Below are positions 59,053-63,810 of a DNA stretch of 64,000 nt, in pieces. Source of the DNA: Planctomycetota bacterium (GTDB lineage: Bacteria; Planctomycetota; UBA1135; UBA2386). Location of the stretch: positions 6,496,001-6,560,000 of the forward strand of contig OZ245006.1 of assembly GCA_965223545.1 (NCBI GenBank), given 5' to 3'. The notes beneath the pieces were generated by a model, which searched no databases, was not told where the DNA came from, and was given only the letters and a program-made list of their open reading frames with translations. Numbering within the stretch: the first letter of the stretch is position 1; every line of letters begins with the position of its first letter. A program made the translations under genes and the position numbers.

Positions 59053-59511
59053 ATGGCCGAGACCTACACAATCGGGCGCCTGGCGAAGGTCGCCGAAGTT
59101 CCCATCTCAACCGTTCGCTACTACGAACAGCGCGGACTCTTGAAGCCGGAACGGCGAACTGAGTCCAACTACCGCGTCTACGGCCCGGCCAGTTTGAAGC
59201 GCTTGCGGTTTATCCGCATCGCGCAGCAAAGCGGCTTCACTCTCGAAGACATCGTGCTCCTTCTCCAGCTTCGCGACCGTGGAAGTGCCACCAGCTGCAA
59301 GCAGGTGGAAAACCTCGTCGACAAGCGACTCGACAACATCACGGCCCAGCTTCGGGAACTTCGACGCGTGCAAAAGGTCCTCCAGTCGACGCTCGAGTGG
59401 TGCAGGAACCCTCGCGTGAAAGGTCGCTGCCGAGTGCTGGACGACTTGGACGGGCAGGCCGCAAGTTCAGGGAAACGCAAATCACCGAGACGTGCCGGAA
59501 AGGCCTCTTGA
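59053..59511 (+). CDS. merR: MerR-family heavy-metal-responsive regulator
   Basis: TIGRLAK...TVRYYEQRGLL HTH. Cys at 82, 117 and 126, the same spacing as the Hg-binding triad of MerR (also shared by CadR/PbrR). Confidence 0.9.
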   Translation: MAETYTIGRLAKVAEVPISTVRYYEQRGLLKPERRTESNYRVYGPASLKRLRFIRIAQQSGFTLEDIVLLLQLRDRGSATSCKQVENLVDKRLDNITAQLRELRRVQKVLQSTLEWCRNPRVKGRCRVLDDLDGQAASSGKRKSPRRAGKAS

Positions 59512-59546: not shown

Positions 59547-60269
59547 ATGCACCCCATCCTGCGCCCAGGCCTCAGTTCGGTTCTGCTGCTCTCCCTGGTG
59601 GCTTGCTCTGAGCCACTAACAGACTCGCCAACTCACGCGCCCACTCCGGAGCTCTCGAAGCTCGTCTCGATTCGCGTCGCTGGTTTCATCGAGGCTGCAG
59701 GCATCACCTGAATGGGTTGACCGAACAAGGTCAAAGAAGCCCTGGATGGGCTTCAAGGCGTTCAGGATGTGCAGGTTGACCTCGAAGACGACAGGTTCGA
59801 TGTCACTTACAACCCGAGGGAAGTGTCTTCCGACACCTTGCTCGAGGCGGTCAGAAAGCTCGACTACACGCCGCAGCTGGTAACGCGCGCGGAGGGTGGG
59901 GGAGAGGCGCCTGCGGACCAGGTCGATGCGGCGCAGCTCCCCAAGGAACTTGCGGCGCTCTTCGCCAAGGCTCGGGAATCCAATAAGGTCGTGCTGCTCA
60001 AGTTCTCCGGGCCAGGTTGACCGCCGTGCAAACGCATGGATGCCGTGACGTATCCGCACGAAGTCGTGAAGAAGGAACTTGATGAACACTGGGTCACGAC
60101 TCACTACGACGTGAGTGAAGCGAAGCGTGTCGCTACCCTCTTCGGAGTCTCGGCGATTCCTGTTGCTATTGGTGTGACCGCTGACGGAATGGTTCTGGGG
60201 CGAGTTCTTGGGTTTGTCGAACCCGAGCGTTTCGAGAAGGAACTCGAGACACTTCGCGCCAAGCGCTAG
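59547..60269 (+). CDS. Predicted triple-selenocysteine lipoprotein: HMA domain (GIT-U-MG-U) plus thioredoxin domain (U-PP-C), 240 aa
   Basis: Three ORF-track pieces are in one frame, separated only by TGA at 59709, 59718 and 60018, each at a CxxC cysteine position. Lipobox LVAC; TAG stop; SECIS-like hairpins. Confidence 0.88.
59736..59754 (+). promoter_or_regulatory. Putative bacterial SECIS hairpin
   Basis: GAAGCCC-TGGAT-GGGCTTC; the loop starts 22 nt after UGA 59718-20 and 31 nt after UGA 59709-11. Confidence 0.7.
60025..60060 (+). promoter_or_regulatory. Putative bacterial SECIS hairpin
   Basis: ACGCA-TGGA-TGC(C)GT upper stem and CGTGC/GCACG lower stem; loop 16 nt after UGA 60018-20; same TGGA loop as 59743. 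Confidence 0.6.
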
Positions 60270-60865
60270 TTCGGGACCACCTTGTAGCCAGTGCGCTCAA
60301 CCGCCTGAACGACTTGCTCGTTGGCGGGAGGAGAGTTCGGCTCGAAGAACACGGTCGCGAGGCCTTCGCTGTAGTTGACGGAAGCACTTGCTACACCGGG
60401 AACCGTGAGAAGCTCCTTCTTCACGTGCACCGTGCAAGCCTCGCACGTCATGCCTTCGATTCGAACGGTCGCCTTCTCGGTCGCTGCTGCATTCGACGGG
60501 GTCGCCTCTCCCTGGTCAGGCGCGATGAGGCCTACGTAGTTCGGGAAGAGGCCAACAACCAACACCAGGGCCGTTGCGACCCAGAGCATCGCTCGGTTGA
60601 AGCGCACGAACTTGTTGCTCGGAGTCGCGCAAGTCTCCCCTGGTGCGCACGCCTGTTTCCGAAAGTAGGTGAAGTAGAAGCCACCAGCGAGAAGCACCGC
60701 TGCGCCACCGAGGAAGTAGGGACGCACAGCTTCAAACTGCGCCGAGATTCCAGCTGCAGATACGCCGAACGCAAGAAGCAGAAGGGGAAGCCAGCAGCAC
60801 GCAGACGCCACAACAGCTGCAAGCACCGACCCGAATGCGGCCAACATCCCACCGCGACCACTCAC
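60266..60865 (-). CDS. merTP: MerT-MerP(HMA) fusion mercuric-ion transporter
   Basis: ASACC.LPL TM1, RPYF, CAPGETC loop, C-terminal GMTCEAC HMA domain. Confidence 0.9.
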   Translation of the reverse strand: MSGRGGMLAAFGSVLAAVVASACCWLPLLLLAFGVSAAGISAQFEAVRPYFLGGAAVLLAGGFYFTYFRKQACAPGETCATPSNKFVRFNRAMLWVATALVLVVGLFPNYVGLIAPDQGEATPSNAAATEKATVRIEGMTCEACTVHVKKELLTVPGVASASVNYSEGLATVFFEPNSPPANEQVVQAVERTGYKVVPN

Positions 60866-61278
60866 GATGTGGCCTCCTTGACGGCTTTTCTGAGGTCACC
60901 AAGACAGCACGACCCCTTCGGGTTCATCGTCTCGCAGCTGCATTCGCCAGCCTTCACCTTCGCGGTCACGGATTCCACGACGGCGCTCTCTCCGGTGCGA
61001 AGCACTTCGTCGCGGATGCTCTCCGCGCTGTGCCCGAAGCAGTAGCAGACCGGGTGGGGAGCGTCTGTCTCCTTCACCCCGACTCGGACCGCGACGTCGT
61101 CCTTGAGCAGCGTCGTTCCATCGCCTGCGAAGTAGACAACATCACAGTCGGGCTCTGGGCAAAACACCCACTGTCGCCCCTCAACAGCGCCTCGCACTTC
61201 TTCTCGCGCGAGGCTCTCGACCGTGACGGTCTTGACCGGCTTTCCTGGCGTCTTGGTCTTGGGGCAGAGAAGGTCCAT
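60862..61278 (-). CDS. Cys-rich CopZ-N-like Zn/[2Fe-2S] metallochaperone
   Basis: FCPEPDCDVVYF, VGVKE, PVCYCF, CSCETMNPKGSCCLG. Confidence 0.85.
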   Translation of the reverse strand: MDLLCPKTKTPGKPVKTVTVESLAREEVRGAVEGRQWVFCPEPDCDVVYFAGDGTTLLKDDVAVRVGVKETDAPHPVCYCFGHSAESIRDEVLRTGESAVVESVTAKVKAGECSCETMNPKGSCCLGDLRKAVKEATS

Positions 61279-61284
61279 GCTCCC

Positions 61285-61316
61285 ATTTACGGCCTTGAAC
61301 CCTGCTTTAGGGTCAA
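61285..61316 (-). promoter_or_regulatory. MerR-type promoter/operator for the metallochaperone-merTP genes
   Basis: Minus strand TTGACC-CTAAAGCAGGGTTCAAGGCC-GTAAAT, then ATG 6 nt later. Confidence 0.6.
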
Positions 61317-61353
61317 GGGTTTTTCGGAGAATGACCAAGAAGCCCGCGCAACG

Positions 61354-62154
61354 TCACTTGTGGAGCAACTCGACGACCTTGTCCACGGCGTTCTTCGACG
61401 GCACGCGCACCGCGCCTACGAACTTGCCGTCCGCATCCAACACCACCAGCCCTGGGATGGGGGCGTCCTCGTGCTCGTGCTTGAACTTGTAGGCATGCGG
61501 TCTCCTCACGATGACGCGCACGGCATTCTTCGAGGTTTCGATGACTTGCTCGTCGTTCACGATGTCTGAGAGCGCACGGCTCTCAAAGCGGGTGCTTGGT
61601 CATCAAGTCTCTGCGCCAGAAAGCCCCACAAGAACGAGCTTCTTCTCCTTCTTGGCCTTCGCAACCGCATCAGCCAGCGACGCAAGGCTTGCGAACTGCC
61701 ACTCAAGGCGCGGCTTCTCGGGAGCCTTCATCTCCTTGGCCCCGAGCGATACCGAGACTTTCTCTTCCTTCAACGTCTTTGCGCGCAGCACGACGGCCTC
61801 GAGCTTCTTCCCAGGCTTACTCACACGCAACACATCGGCGATGTCGTCCTGGCTGAAGAGTTCGACTGCGCCGAGCTTCACGAGCACGTCACCGGCCTCG
61901 ATGCCTGCTTTGCCAGCGGCGCTGTCCTTCTCCACATCTGAGACAACCTGGCCGCGAGCTCGGACCTCGAACTTGAGGTCGAGCTGCTTGACCTCTTCCT
62001 TGGATGGAGCGCGCGTGCTCGCGCCGAGTGTTGCGACCTTGACGAGCTTCGGTTCCTTCTCTTGAGGGTCTTGGTCTGGCTTCTCTTGCGCTGCGACCGG
62101 GCAGCAACAGAGAAGCCCAACGACCGGGCCTAGAAGGTGACGGGTCCTGACCAT
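61354..62154 (-). CDS. Predicted selenoprotein with tandem Sec-Sec: signal peptide, PDZ domain and thioredoxin-like domain (GAET-U-U-PST), 266 aa
   Basis: ORFs 61603-62202 and 61354-61560 are in frame, separated by TGA-TGA (61605-61600) and 13 sense codons. The Trx fold continues on both sides (AVAKAKKEKKLVLV ... IPGLVVLDADGK). SECIS-like hairpin follows. Confidence 0.78.
61565..61587 (-). promoter_or_regulatory. Putative bacterial SECIS hairpin
   Basis: Minus strand TTTGAGAGC-CGTGC-GCTCTCAGA; loop 21 and 24 nt after the two UGAs, with G at loop position 2. Confidence 0.68.
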
Positions 62155-62187
62155 GCTTTCGGTTCCTGGGGGGGTTGGAGGGCTGGC

Positions 62188-62219
62188 ATTGTCCACCCTC
62201 AACCATGGTGCATGGTCAA
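62188..62219 (-). promoter_or_regulatory. MerR-type long-spacer promoter for the PDZ-Trx selenoprotein
   Basis: Minus strand TTGACC-ATGCACCATGGTTGAGGGTG-GACAAT: 20-bp spacer with a dyad centred on CCATGG. Confidence 0.72.
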
Positions 62220-62314
62220 CTACTCCGCGAGGGGAAGTCGACCCGGGCGATGGGCGCCTTGGAAGGTGAGTCGGCGATGTCCTGCCGGACCGCTCACCAC
62301 CGTTCCCTAACGTC

Positions 62315-62388: not shown

Positions 62389-62713
62389 TCGGAAGGGGAG
62401 ACGCCGTTTGAAACCACGGAAGAGGCCAACACCACACTACTCGGACGACGCACCATTCTGCTGGATCGATGAGTGGTGGACCTGGGTGTTCACGCCTACC
62501 GGTAGCGTGCCGTGGCTCGAGCGCGAGGGTCGAGAACTTGAGGACGGCATGCGGCTTGAGGTTCGGCTTGGTCCTGAACGTTGGCTTCCGGTCTACGTGC
62601 GGCGGCGCGGGGAGGTGGTCACGTTCTGCTACCCCTTGCCGCACATCGATGACGAGCTCCTGATCGACATCCCGCACGAAGCTGAGCTTCGCCTTGTGGA
62701 GCCTGCGGCATGA
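62366..62713 (+). CDS. Hypothetical protein coupled to the recombinase
   Basis: ATGA overlap with the recombinase; start uncertain. Confidence 0.45.
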   Translation: MLLKKGLDRKGRRRLKPRKRPTPHYSDDAPFCWIDEWWTWVFTPTGSVPWLEREGRELEDGMRLEVRLGPERWLPVYVRRRGEVVTFCYPLPHIDDELLIDIPHEAELRLVEPAA

Positions 62714-63810
62714 CGGCGGGGCTCCTCACCGAGACGCCGCTGTCCAGACCGACGGACTCGAAGCCAGTTCGCGAGTTGCCGCGGATTCTTGAGGGACATG
62801 GCTCGCCCGCGGTGCGTCGGCGCGTCGAGAGCTTCGTCGCCTCTGTCGAAGCGATGTTCGAGGCCTGGGTCGCAAGGAGGGACAACCCGCACACTCAGCG
62901 CGCCTACCGGCAGGACGTTATGCACTTCGTTCGGTTCGCCGGGATCGAGTGGCCACGCGACGACTGGAACTTGCTCAAGAGCACGGTGCCCGACGTCCAG
63001 GAGTGGCGGACCTTCATGATCCAAGTCGATGGTAGCGCCCCAAAGACGGTGCTCCGTCGAGTGACGTCGCTCTCCCGGTTCTTCGAATACATGCGTGAGC
63101 AAGCGGCGGAGTTTCGGCTTCCCGTGATCGTGCCGAACCCCGCGCACAAGAACCACATCCCGCGCGAGGATGCAGAGCCAGTGGCGCCCACGAAGGAGCT
63201 CACGTTCTCTCGAGTTCGGCAACTCAAGGAGCTCGCCGCGGGCGAGTCGGTGCTGGCCTACCGCGACCGCGCGATCATCTACTTTTACCTCTACACCGGT
63301 GCTCGGATCGGCACCGGTTGTTCGGTTCGCGTCGAGGACTGTCACCTCGACCCCGAGGATCCCTACTTGATGGTGCGGGAGAAGGGAAAGGGCGCGAGCC
63401 GCAGGCGCGTTGGCATCAACGCGCAGTGCGCAGAAGCGCTCGCGGAATACATCGAGGAGGCCAGGCTCGGTAGCGGGCCCCTCTTCCGCCCGCGGGCGAA
63501 TTCTCGGTCGGCAAAGCTCGCAAGCCGGGCGATGACCACGGTCACGATGTATCGGTTGCTGAAGAGTTACCTCGAGCGGTTGCCGCGCGCGTCACGCGAG
63601 GTTCAGCTTCCAGACGGAAGCATCGTACGTCGGTGCATCTACACGCCTCATTCGCTTCGAGCGACAGCCGCAACCCAAGCGGATGAGGTTGGCGTTCCGA
63701 TCACCAAGATTCAGGAGCTGCTCGGCCACAAGCAGATCAAAACAACTCAGGTCTACGTCAAGCGCAAGCGCGGAACGAAGGAGAGTGCGTCGCATCAGCT
63801 GCCGTTCTGA
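62710..63810 (+). CDS. Tyrosine recombinase (XerC/D-like resolvase/integrase)
   Basis: N-terminal TQRAYRQD SAM-like domain; RDRAII...YTGAR, KG, HSLRATA and LLGH...TTQVY catalytic residues. Confidence 0.93.
   Translation: MTAGLLTETPLSRPTDSKPVRELPRILEGHGSPAVRRRVESFVASVEAMFEAWVARRDNPHTQRAYRQDVMHFVRFAGIEWPRDDWNLLKSTVPDVQEWRTFMIQVDGSAPKTVLRRVTSLSRFFEYMREQAAEFRLPVIVPNPAHKNHIPREDAEPVAPTKELTFSRVRQLKELAAGESVLAYRDRAIIYFYLYTGARIGTGCSVRVEDCHLDPEDPYLMVREKGKGASRRRVGINAQCAEALAEYIEEARLGSGPLFRPRANSRSAKLASRAMTTVTMYRLLKSYLERLPRASREVQLPDGSIVRRCIYTPHSLRATAATQADEVGVPITKIQELLGHKQIKTTQVYVKRKRGTKESASHQLPF

Follow-up and report, generated by a model that had tools for sequence, protein, structure and literature searches.

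The DNA analysed (the window) is a 64,000-nt stretch of contig OZ245006.1 from assembly GCA_965223545.1 of a Planctomycetota bacterium (UBA1135; UBA2386), positions 6,496,001 to 6,560,000 of the forward strand. Near its end, the minus strand carries a gene for a putatively exported protein with a PDZ domain and a C-terminal thioredoxin-like (Trx) domain, crossed in frame by two consecutive TGA codons that are predicted to be decoded as a selenocysteine-selenocysteine (Sec-Sec; UU) dipeptide. Coordinates of all features are collected in Table 1. From the ATG at 62154 the frame reads MVRTRHLLGPVVGLLCCCPVAAQEKPD...KKLVLVGLSGAET, TGA TGA, PSTRFESRALSDIVNDEQVIETSKNAVRVIVRRPHAYKFKHEHEDAPIPGLVVLDADGKFVGAVRVPSKNAVDKVVELLHK, and the stop; around the tandem codons it is LVLVGLSGAET-TGA-TGA-PSTRFESRALSDIVND...IPGLVVLDADGK...ELLHK-TGA, with 81 sense codons between the second TGA and the stop. 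This start is consistent with the N-termini of homologues (P0004 and others), whose leaders are similar, and the structural model has a low predicted local distance difference test score (pLDDT) over residues 1-30. The first-pass annotation, made from the letters alone, had the gene limits (61354-62154) exactly, and its double UGA at codons 184-185 with 81 further codons was borne out when the frame was re-read. The 68-aa downstream open reading frame (ORF) listed there is present, yet it is just the first GTG-started piece of the same frame and no separate ORF. In three public sequencing runs (two studies), contigs that in part may be the source of the assembly showed 0 differences from the window over positions 61300-62250 (951 bp); no RNA run was listed for the locus.

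Locus DNA of relatives was obtained from species genomes (two loci, with the single protein as query) and, by an alignment-based scan, from metagenomes (45 loci). TGATGA stands in 45 of the 48 locus rows bearing the preceding motif, a count that includes the window's own locus twice, and the variants were seen in one locus each: TGT TGA (Cys-Sec; L066), TGA CGA (Sec-Arg; L031), and TAA TGA (L051). With L066, a Cys-Sec homologue of the kind that the first-pass annotation had proposed to look for was obtained. Downstream of the pair, the frame is open and conserved (UU-P-S/T-T-R-F-E ... RRPHAY.F ... P-I-P-G) up to a TAG, a TAA, or a late TGA 82-107 codons on, and every complete locus keeps it to the stop. 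The contrary case named beforehand, in which the proteins would be PDZ alone and the tail would not be conserved, is not what these loci show. In the 54 loci that could be aligned, TGA is the first codon of the pair in 52 and the second codon in 53. The ratio of nonsynonymous to synonymous differences (pN/pS) downstream is 0.63 in frame vs. 0.93 and 1.43 in the other two frames, rough values with synonymous differences near saturation.

An even sample of 401 genomes was surveyed across the phylum. The domain is present in 27 of them, and two in-frame TGAs were found in 28 of 29 matches. Direct reading of the loci L072-L099 gave UU in 27 of 28, including a divergent subfamily (UU-AFLRFE..., RVPEAY); in the unread one (L086, genome G378), the match begins only at profile position 29. 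Two further loci (L069 and L070; tblastn 52% identity, residues 160-277) stand outside the site counts, as they do not fit the motif expressions.

Cys homologues of the C-terminal part were also identified. In a HMMER search of the C-terminal 108 residues against 1.8 billion representatives, 65 hits were obtained and nine were fetched. Six of the nine span the site, and all six are Cys-Cys (P0054, P0058, P0059, P0066, P0095, and P0109), in the contexts GSDT-CC-PFTRFE, GSDT-CC-AFSRFE, GSET-CC-AFSRFE, GGEL-CC-VSEH, GSKS-CC-SYMS, and one other; the P0109 cluster includes an NCBI protein of candidate division KSB1. These homologues have real Cys codons, because gene callers cannot make Cys from TGA. 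The check for CC homologues suggested at the outset thus yielded six clusters with CC exactly at the site, and Cys homologues at both positions are, as far as sequence comparison goes, the classical signature of a Sec site.

The same database searches bear on a simpler explanation, namely that the double TGA is a genuine stop, the product a PDZ protein of 183 residues, and the 81 codons a small separate gene or a decaying remnant. Gene callers do annotate the family in this way, with about 40 proteins of about 180 aa and about 50 downstream fragments. In a word-index protein search with 47 relatives, about 40 were of that length, and 12 of the 13 that were read stop exactly at ...GA[ED]T; gene callers therefore cut them at the same place, and the PDZ-only database proteins are an artefact, because gene callers stop at TGA. 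Most of the 65 HMMER matches correspond to stretches of 50-90 aa within the downstream frame that were called as genes of their own, with starts scattered over query residues 31-58. A true stop would leave β-strand 1 of the Trx domain (LVLVGLS), which the fold needs, upstream of the UGAs, and in the model a single compact domain spans the site; PSTRFE is conserved directly after the UGAs, and there is no conserved start codon. As the CC homologues are continuous, the frame is open to the stop in complete loci, and the hairpin described below covaries, a genuine double stop is extremely improbable.

A 9-bp hairpin that resembles a bacterial selenocysteine insertion sequence (SECIS) follows the tandem codons. 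Its stem begins 12 nt past the second UGA and 15 nt past the first; the 9-bp hairpin of the first-pass annotation is real, but the distance of 21-24 nt given for it is that from UGA to loop and not to the stem. A 72-nt fold has -22.8 kcal/mol vs. -16.1 +/- 2.8 for shuffles (z -2.4; 4 of 200 shuffles equal). In a single sequence the hairpin is thus mildly unusual, and its weight comes from conservation. In an ungapped alignment of 43 distinct loci, RNAalifold recovered a 6-bp core (GAGAGC/GCUCUC) that is formed in 42-43 of the 43 sequences, and in an 8-pair version 92.4% of cells are paired. Changes on both sides occur in four of the eight pairs (CG to UA in 6, AU to GC in 2, outer CG to UA in 3, and one further pair), the observed covariation score was reached by 0 of 500 shuffles, and pairing falls to 26-64% when the 3' arm is slid by 1-3 columns. 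The compensatory CG to UA change consists of two synonymous substitutions (AGC to AGT and GCG to GCA). Other synonymous sites are frozen: Glu is GAG in 54/54 loci, the loop codon is NGT in 54/54, and Leu is CTC in 51/54. The loop G-U is invariant across loci (loop NGUNN), because the loop codon is always NGT. Locus L094 has another peptide at this place (GDVDFEASRALAEV) and still forms a 7-bp hairpin with a CGUGC loop, one codon further downstream.

The hairpin is called SECIS-like by its fold, spacing, covariation, and loop G-U. Its alignment contains one conserved hairpin for the two codons, which agrees with the anatomy of two UGAs and one SECIS that had been proposed for the gene. The single-Sec UPPC site of the neighbouring gene also has a hairpin, and the G of its loop (CGUGAC) is at a distance of 28 nt from the U of UGA. 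For the loop G of the UU gene, the corresponding distances are 29 nt (first UGA) and 26 nt (second UGA), and therefore both UGAs bracket the spacing used elsewhere in the genome.

The genome (8.1 Mb, 91% complete) encodes the machinery for Sec. One tRNA-Sec was identified, with 74.2 bits against a gathering score of 47, and was called SeC with anticodon tca by ARAGORN; further matches of the tRNA-Sec model in the genome are tRNA-Ser and were rejected. SelB (318 bits), SelA (464 bits), and SelD (346 bits) score over their curated cut-offs of 242, 268, and 125, respectively. The SelD gene, located beside selA (L011, G000:C1:1264004-1264921), has one in-frame TGA, and hence SelD is itself a selenoprotein. 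Among the 64 tRNAs found genome-wide, the UCA anticodon occurs in tRNA-Sec alone, and both tRNA-Trp genes have CCA. No in-frame TGA is present in SelA and SelB, so in this genome TGA does not serve as a general sense codon.

These data also concern the possibility that the UGAs are read through without Sec, by a near-cognate tRNA-Trp (Trp-Trp) or as Cys, or that read-through is a rare regulated event with the 183-residue PDZ protein as the main product. A full-length database homologue from a 1.5-kb metagenome contig (P0018) is recorded with Trp-Trp at the site, TGA and TGG being one base apart, and two successive recodings would be inefficient, so that a truncated PDZ product is likely made too. 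A table-4 gene call may lie behind the P0018 record, or its codons may be real TGG TGG; TGG TGG occurs in 0 of about 75 loci read as DNA, where the variants are TGT, CGA, and TAA, and distant homologues have Cys-Cys. The conserved hairpin, with its invariant G-U loop and SECIS-like spacing, would have no role in near-cognate decoding. With the UCA anticodon restricted to tRNA-Sec and with TGA-free SelA and SelB, decoding without Sec is considered very unlikely.

Found together at the locus and in its genome are the features by which bacterial selenoproteins are recognized: a conserved in-frame UGA followed by an open frame, Cys homologues, a stem-loop with G-U in the loop, and tRNA-Sec with SelA, SelB, and SelD. 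On the strength of this comparison, a real gene coding for Sec-Sec appears highly probable, both UGAs are very likely decoded as Sec, and one SECIS probably serves both codons.

A model computed in AlphaFold2 (AF2) from a 27-row alignment has a pLDDT of 90.5 and a predicted template modelling score (pTM) of 0.82. It consists of a disordered leader, the PDZ domain (residues 37-143), and a β-α-β-α-β-β-α domain (residues 146-266). The PDZ domain scores over the Pfam gathering threshold with PDZ_6 (PF17820; 33.6 bits) and PDZ_2 (PF13180; 32.5 bits), cut-off 27, and its structure matches are HtrA/DegP PDZ domains with Z up to 14.3. The whole model returned PDZ matches only in Foldseek. In a search independent of Foldseek (VIA-align), residues 146-266 matched the DsbD-C-like 3f9u_B (Z 11.0, root-mean-square deviation 2.5, 113 residues aligned), DsbH 2ju5 (Z 10.6), cDsbD 1vrs_D (Z 10.5), and many thioredoxins, all with Z 9-11. 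The topology is that of a thioredoxin with the active site after strand 1, as judged from the secondary structure of the model and these Z values, and UU (184-185) stands right after the first Trx β-strand (173-179), where the first-pass annotation had put it. By sequence, the Pfam model PF13899 (Thioredoxin_7) gave 20.8 bits against a threshold of 27, with 19 of 21 family members sub-threshold and a best E of 5.6e-5; a profile of the C-terminal domain found no relative at E <= 1 among PDB sequences, and no NCBIfam model was passed by the UU protein.

The register of the active site was taken from hhalign, where the family profile aligned with the Trx(UxxC) domain of the neighbouring gene with a probability of 96.7% (E 3e-10). 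In this alignment G-A-E-T-U-U-P-S-T-R lies on G-P-.-G-U-P-P-C-K-R, with U184 on the Sec of UxxC. By this register, the predicted first Sec is at the nucleophilic N-terminal position of CxxC, and Ser/Thr replaces the resolving Cys. The fourth motif position is Phe in CC homologues, so the conserved unit is the adjacent pair.

Table 1. Features of the tandem-UGA gene and its neighbourhood (positions within the window).
Feature	Position	Strand	Remarks
Gene for putatively exported PDZ + thioredoxin-like protein	61354..62154	minus	ATG at 62154; 266 codons; terminal TGA stop 61356-61354
N-terminal hydrophobic leader	62086..62154	minus	MVRTRHLLGPVVGLLCCCPVAAQ; putative export signal, judged by eye from sequence
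PDZ domain, residues 37-143	61726..62046	minus	Pfam PDZ_6 and PDZ_2; structure matches
Thioredoxin-fold domain bearing UU, residues 146-266	61357..61719	minus	AF2 model; VIA-align; hhalign
TGA TGA, codons 184-185, predicted Sec-Sec dipeptide	61605..61600 (61605-61603, 61602-61600)	minus	In-frame reading and locus comparison
SECIS-like hairpin, 9 bp	61587..61565	minus	Stem UUUGAGAGC/GCUCUCAGA; loop CGUGC 61578-61574
MerR-family regulator	59053..59511	plus	Cys 82, 117, 126; Pfam MerR_1 71.2 bits
Partner: lipoprotein-like HMA(UxxU) + thioredoxin(UxxC)	59547..60269	plus	Three in-frame TGAs: 59709-59711, 59718-59720, 60018-60020
MerT-like membrane protein fused to HMA	60266..60865	minus	CC in first helix (ACCW); HMA motif GMTCEAC; Pfam MerT 54.2 bits (cut-off 32.9), HMA 54
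CopZ-N-terminal-type Zn/2Fe-2S-binding protein	60862..61338	minus	C-terminal SCC (SCCL); NF047645 CopZ_Nterm_CC 125.9 bits (cut-off 100); Pfam zf_CopZ 63.1
Tyrosine recombinase/integrase-like gene	62710-63810	plus

The genes next to the UU gene are mostly related to metals. PDZ-Trx(UU), CopZ-like, and MerT-HMA genes follow one another on the minus strand, and MerR and the HMA-Trx partner converge on them from the plus strand. Three adjacent-chalcogen motifs (UU, SCCL, and ACCW) thus stand in one operon. The Cys residues of the MerR-family protein presumably are equivalents of the Hg-binding Cys of Tn501 MerR. For the CopZ-like protein, NCBIfam holds a Cys-Sec sister family, NF045877. The partner has the leader LLLSLVAC, the HMA motif GIT-U-MG-U, and the thioredoxin motif GPG-U-PP-C, and standard ORF calling breaks its gene into three pieces.

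A tblastn database of 47 loci, many of them short, was used for comparison of the neighbourhoods. In 20 of these loci the HMA(UxxU)-Trx partner adjoins the UU gene or is fused to it, MerR was found in 9, MerT-HMA in 4, and the CopZ-like gene in 4; in L028, all five genes are on one strand. UxxU is present in the HMA domain of 25/25 partners, and their Trx motif is UxxC in 13, CxxC in 9, and not found in 3. In four loci (L034, L042, L047, and L062), one frame with five TGAs codes for the whole fusion PDZ-Trx(UU)-HMA(UxxU)-Trx(UxxC). A 2026 review (PMC13188914) gives a prokaryotic maximum of 2-3 Sec per protein, a range that the five-TGA fusions, read as predicted, exceed. In L049, a TGA and a second leader separate the UU half from the partner half. 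An extra HMA-like domain stands ahead of PDZ in P0045, L031, and L046; L085, L087, L088, and P0105 also have extra HMA-like domains, and in the RVPEAY subfamily Cys-less HMA-like domains come after Trx(UU). The integrase-like gene flanks the metal island, which may be mobile; no relative of the integrase was found in the other loci by tblastn (47 loci).

The preferred reading, to which a probability of roughly 0.6 is assigned, is that the protein is exported, receives its tandem Sec via one hairpin, and captures a soft metal, probably Hg(II), with the vicinal diselenol in the periplasm, handing it on. In the proposed mechanism, UGA UGA would be decoded twice in succession as Sec by tRNA-Sec/SelB with the single hairpin 12-15 nt downstream. 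After export, the diselenol would bind a soft metal, most likely Hg(II), which is favoured because MerR and MerT relatives are present and because the operon holds three vicinal chalcogen pairs. The metal would then be passed to, or held jointly with, the HMA(UxxU) partner, along a possible route Trx(UU) -> HMA(UxxU) -> MerT(CC) -> cytoplasmic HMA / CopZ-like CC protein, and the PDZ domain would dock a partner. Once the gene is taken as real, the odds of a metal-handling role may be put slightly above even. Vicinal Cys-Cys in the first transmembrane helix of MerT and at the C-terminus of MerA are pairs of mercury resistance; the analogy of UU with them would rest on gene context (MerR, MerT-HMA, CopZ-like CC, and the UxxU HMA partner).

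A redox role is the main rival to metal handling. Here the same gene with Sec-Sec would form a redox centre, as a diselenol/strained vicinal diselenide or a selenenylsulfide, which Trx(UxxC) recycles, with PDZ recruiting periplasmic substrates. The thioredoxin fold, in which the first Sec would take the place of the CxxC nucleophile, the constant partner with a classical UxxC/CxxC thioredoxin domain, and the DsbD-C-like and DsbH oxidoreductases as the closest structures are in line with such a role, as is a second UU/UC family of this genome, which likewise has a CxxC thioredoxin-like domain. According to PMC13188914 (section 7), most prokaryotic selenoproteins are thought to be redox-active. 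The position of the resolving Cys, however, is Ser/Thr here and Phe in CC homologues, and hence is not conserved. The recurrent neighbours are metal proteins (MerR, MerT-HMA, CopZ-like CC, and HMA UxxU) and no redox enzymes, and several homologues (P0045, L031, and L046) have HMA-like domains fused to one end or the other. A redox centre is therefore regarded as rather unlikely.

Several observations weigh against soft-metal capture by a doubly decoded Sec pair. Transfer of a metal from selenolate to thiol would run counter to the affinity gradient. The MerR-family protein stays below the equivalog level of the NCBIfam models (MerR TIGR02051 109.1 bits vs. 150.85; ZntR 116.9 bits, also sub-cut-off), and the MerT-HMA protein is below that of MerTP_fusion (115.3 vs. 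180 bits). MerA was not found over the cut-off in the 91%-complete genome, with 345.8 vs. 454 bits for the best TIGR02053 match; this candidate, a lipoamide-dehydrogenase-like gene beside a 2-oxoacid dehydrogenase E1 gene, was rejected. Among the components of a mer operon, MerT was thus recognized by Pfam, and an equivalog of MerR and a MerA were not. Model confidence is lowest in the UU loop, with a pLDDT of about 67 over residues 181-190 in the whole model and below 50 over UUPSTRFE in a domain-only one.

As to decoding, P0018 with its Trp-Trp has already been mentioned. TAA at the first position in L051 and Arg at the second in L031 mean, by their sequences, that neither Sec is strictly indispensable in all lineages. 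In the genome G020, which belongs to the same family, the Trx(UU) part (L013, G020:C7) comes after a TAA and an unrelated frame resembling a hydrolase, and a PDZ part is on G020:C229; the locus may be a rearranged or decaying copy or an assembly problem of a metagenome-assembled genome (MAG). Two of the 27 gene-carrying genomes (MAGs 82% and 85% complete) gave no match for SelB, and its co-occurrence is a weak test, because 285 of the 401 phylum genomes have SelB. No experimental precedent for serial decoding of two adjacent codons was found in the literature search. The UU hairpin stands at 12-15 nt vs. 11 nt from UGA to the upper stem in Escherichia coli fdhF, as given in PMC8659212.

Sec-Sec has no counterpart among the 119 prokaryotic selenoprotein families in Table 1 of PMC13188914, which contains no UU motif; the entries that come closest are those for Trx7/PDZ (CxxU, 1 Sec), the UxxU metal-binding protein, and CU families. 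In the limited library searched, no report of bacterial UU was found, with supplements, BSepDB contents, and the primary catalogues behind the review outside the range of this search. A term search within the available portions of PMC13326102, PMC9312934, PMC13188914, and bioRxiv 10.1101/2022.07.06.499078 met no UU motif. The Trx7/PDZ (seleno)protein NF041199 is, like the predicted UU protein, an exported selenoprotein with a Thioredoxin_7-like domain and PDZ, but it has CxxU with one Sec (PMC13188914, Table 1), whereas the UU protein has UU-P-S/T, with PDZ first and Trx last. Against this model the UU protein scores 36.6 bits, under the cut-off of 300, and the match covers residues 74-181 in the PDZ part. 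The UxxU metal-binding (seleno)protein NF041115 shares with it two close Sec residues, a supposed metal-binding function, and apparent service by a nearby RNA structure. The HMA domain of the partner, whether adjacent or fused, comes from this family (54.8 bits for the partner in the window vs. a cut-off of 95); the family differs in its HMA ferredoxin-like fold and in Sec residues three positions apart, and the UU protein itself is no match.

Selenoproteins with a CU dipeptide include SaoL, SaoC, HgcA, the CopZ-type Csac_0668 family, and MbdU (bioRxiv 10.1101/2022.07.06.499078; PMC13188914, Table 1). They resemble the UU protein in an adjacent Sec-containing pair, in often organometal or mercury contexts, and in database entries truncated at UGA; they have one Sec and a Cys, whereas the UU protein needs two consecutive UGAs recoded. 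DsbD-C, DsbH, and oxidoreductases of the Thioredoxin_7 type have the same fold, are also periplasmic, and carry their active site after β-strand 1. Their motif is CxxC, while the UU protein has Ser/Thr for the C-terminal Cys and a second chalcogen beside the first. The CC pairs of MerT and MerA are likewise adjacent chalcogens in a gene set of mercury type; UU differs in its selenium, its periplasmic thioredoxin fold, and the lack of a MerA match, and its binding of metal is predicted. Among eukaryotes, selenoprotein L has a UxxU diselenide and selenoprotein P has many Sec, and both are like the UU protein in more than one Sec per redox or metal site or per protein. The eukaryotic SECIS is in the 3' untranslated region and acts at a distance, but the bacterial SECIS is located just after the UGA, so that adjacent UGAs share one element at two spacings.

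Bacterial Sec insertion is taught as one UGA and one hairpin at a fixed distance. Adjacent UGAs that are conserved over many genera and have one hairpin would mean that the SelB-SECIS-ribosome complex acts twice or tolerates a shift of 3 nt. Sec-Sec, if true, would be a new ligand or redox motif. As a diselenolate, the vicinal pair could bind Hg and other soft metals with very high affinity; alternatively, it could exist as a strained diselenide. Every gene caller truncates the UU family, of which about 90 fragments are in public protein sets, and because of this truncation the family and the five-Sec fusions are missed when selenoproteomes are counted. The link to MerR, MerT, and HMA without MerA hints at selenium-dependent mercury handling in aquatic planctomycetes.

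A second, unrelated tandem-UGA gene was identified in a genome-wide TGATGA scan at G000:C1:283525-284463 (L102:126-1061). It codes for a signal peptide ending in ...APATSQ, UU, a Gly/Pro-rich linker, and a thioredoxin-like domain with CGRC. Its hairpin has 8 bp and the loop GUU and starts 11 nt past the second TGA. Relatives of this family are present in 25 of the 401 phylum genomes, with Q-UU-, Q-UC-, or Q-U- after the signal peptide. Judged by these sequences, tandem Sec seems to recur within the phylum. A wider picture can be offered only tentatively, with the odds somewhat against it as a whole: two UGAs with a single SECIS, UU as the entry point of a selenium-based, MerA-independent Hg-trapping relay (UU -> UxxU -> CC) that includes some five-Sec fusions, and tandem Sec as a general trait of the phylum in at least two families. 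Another TGATGA match of the scan, at C1:6005789, was rejected as noise, with a G+C content at third codon positions (GC3) of 0.56/0.48 and an Arg/Ala-rich translation. Two paralogous UU genes about 1.5 kb apart were seen in two genomes of one genus, as L078/L098 (G264:C36) and L076/L099 (G338:C1).

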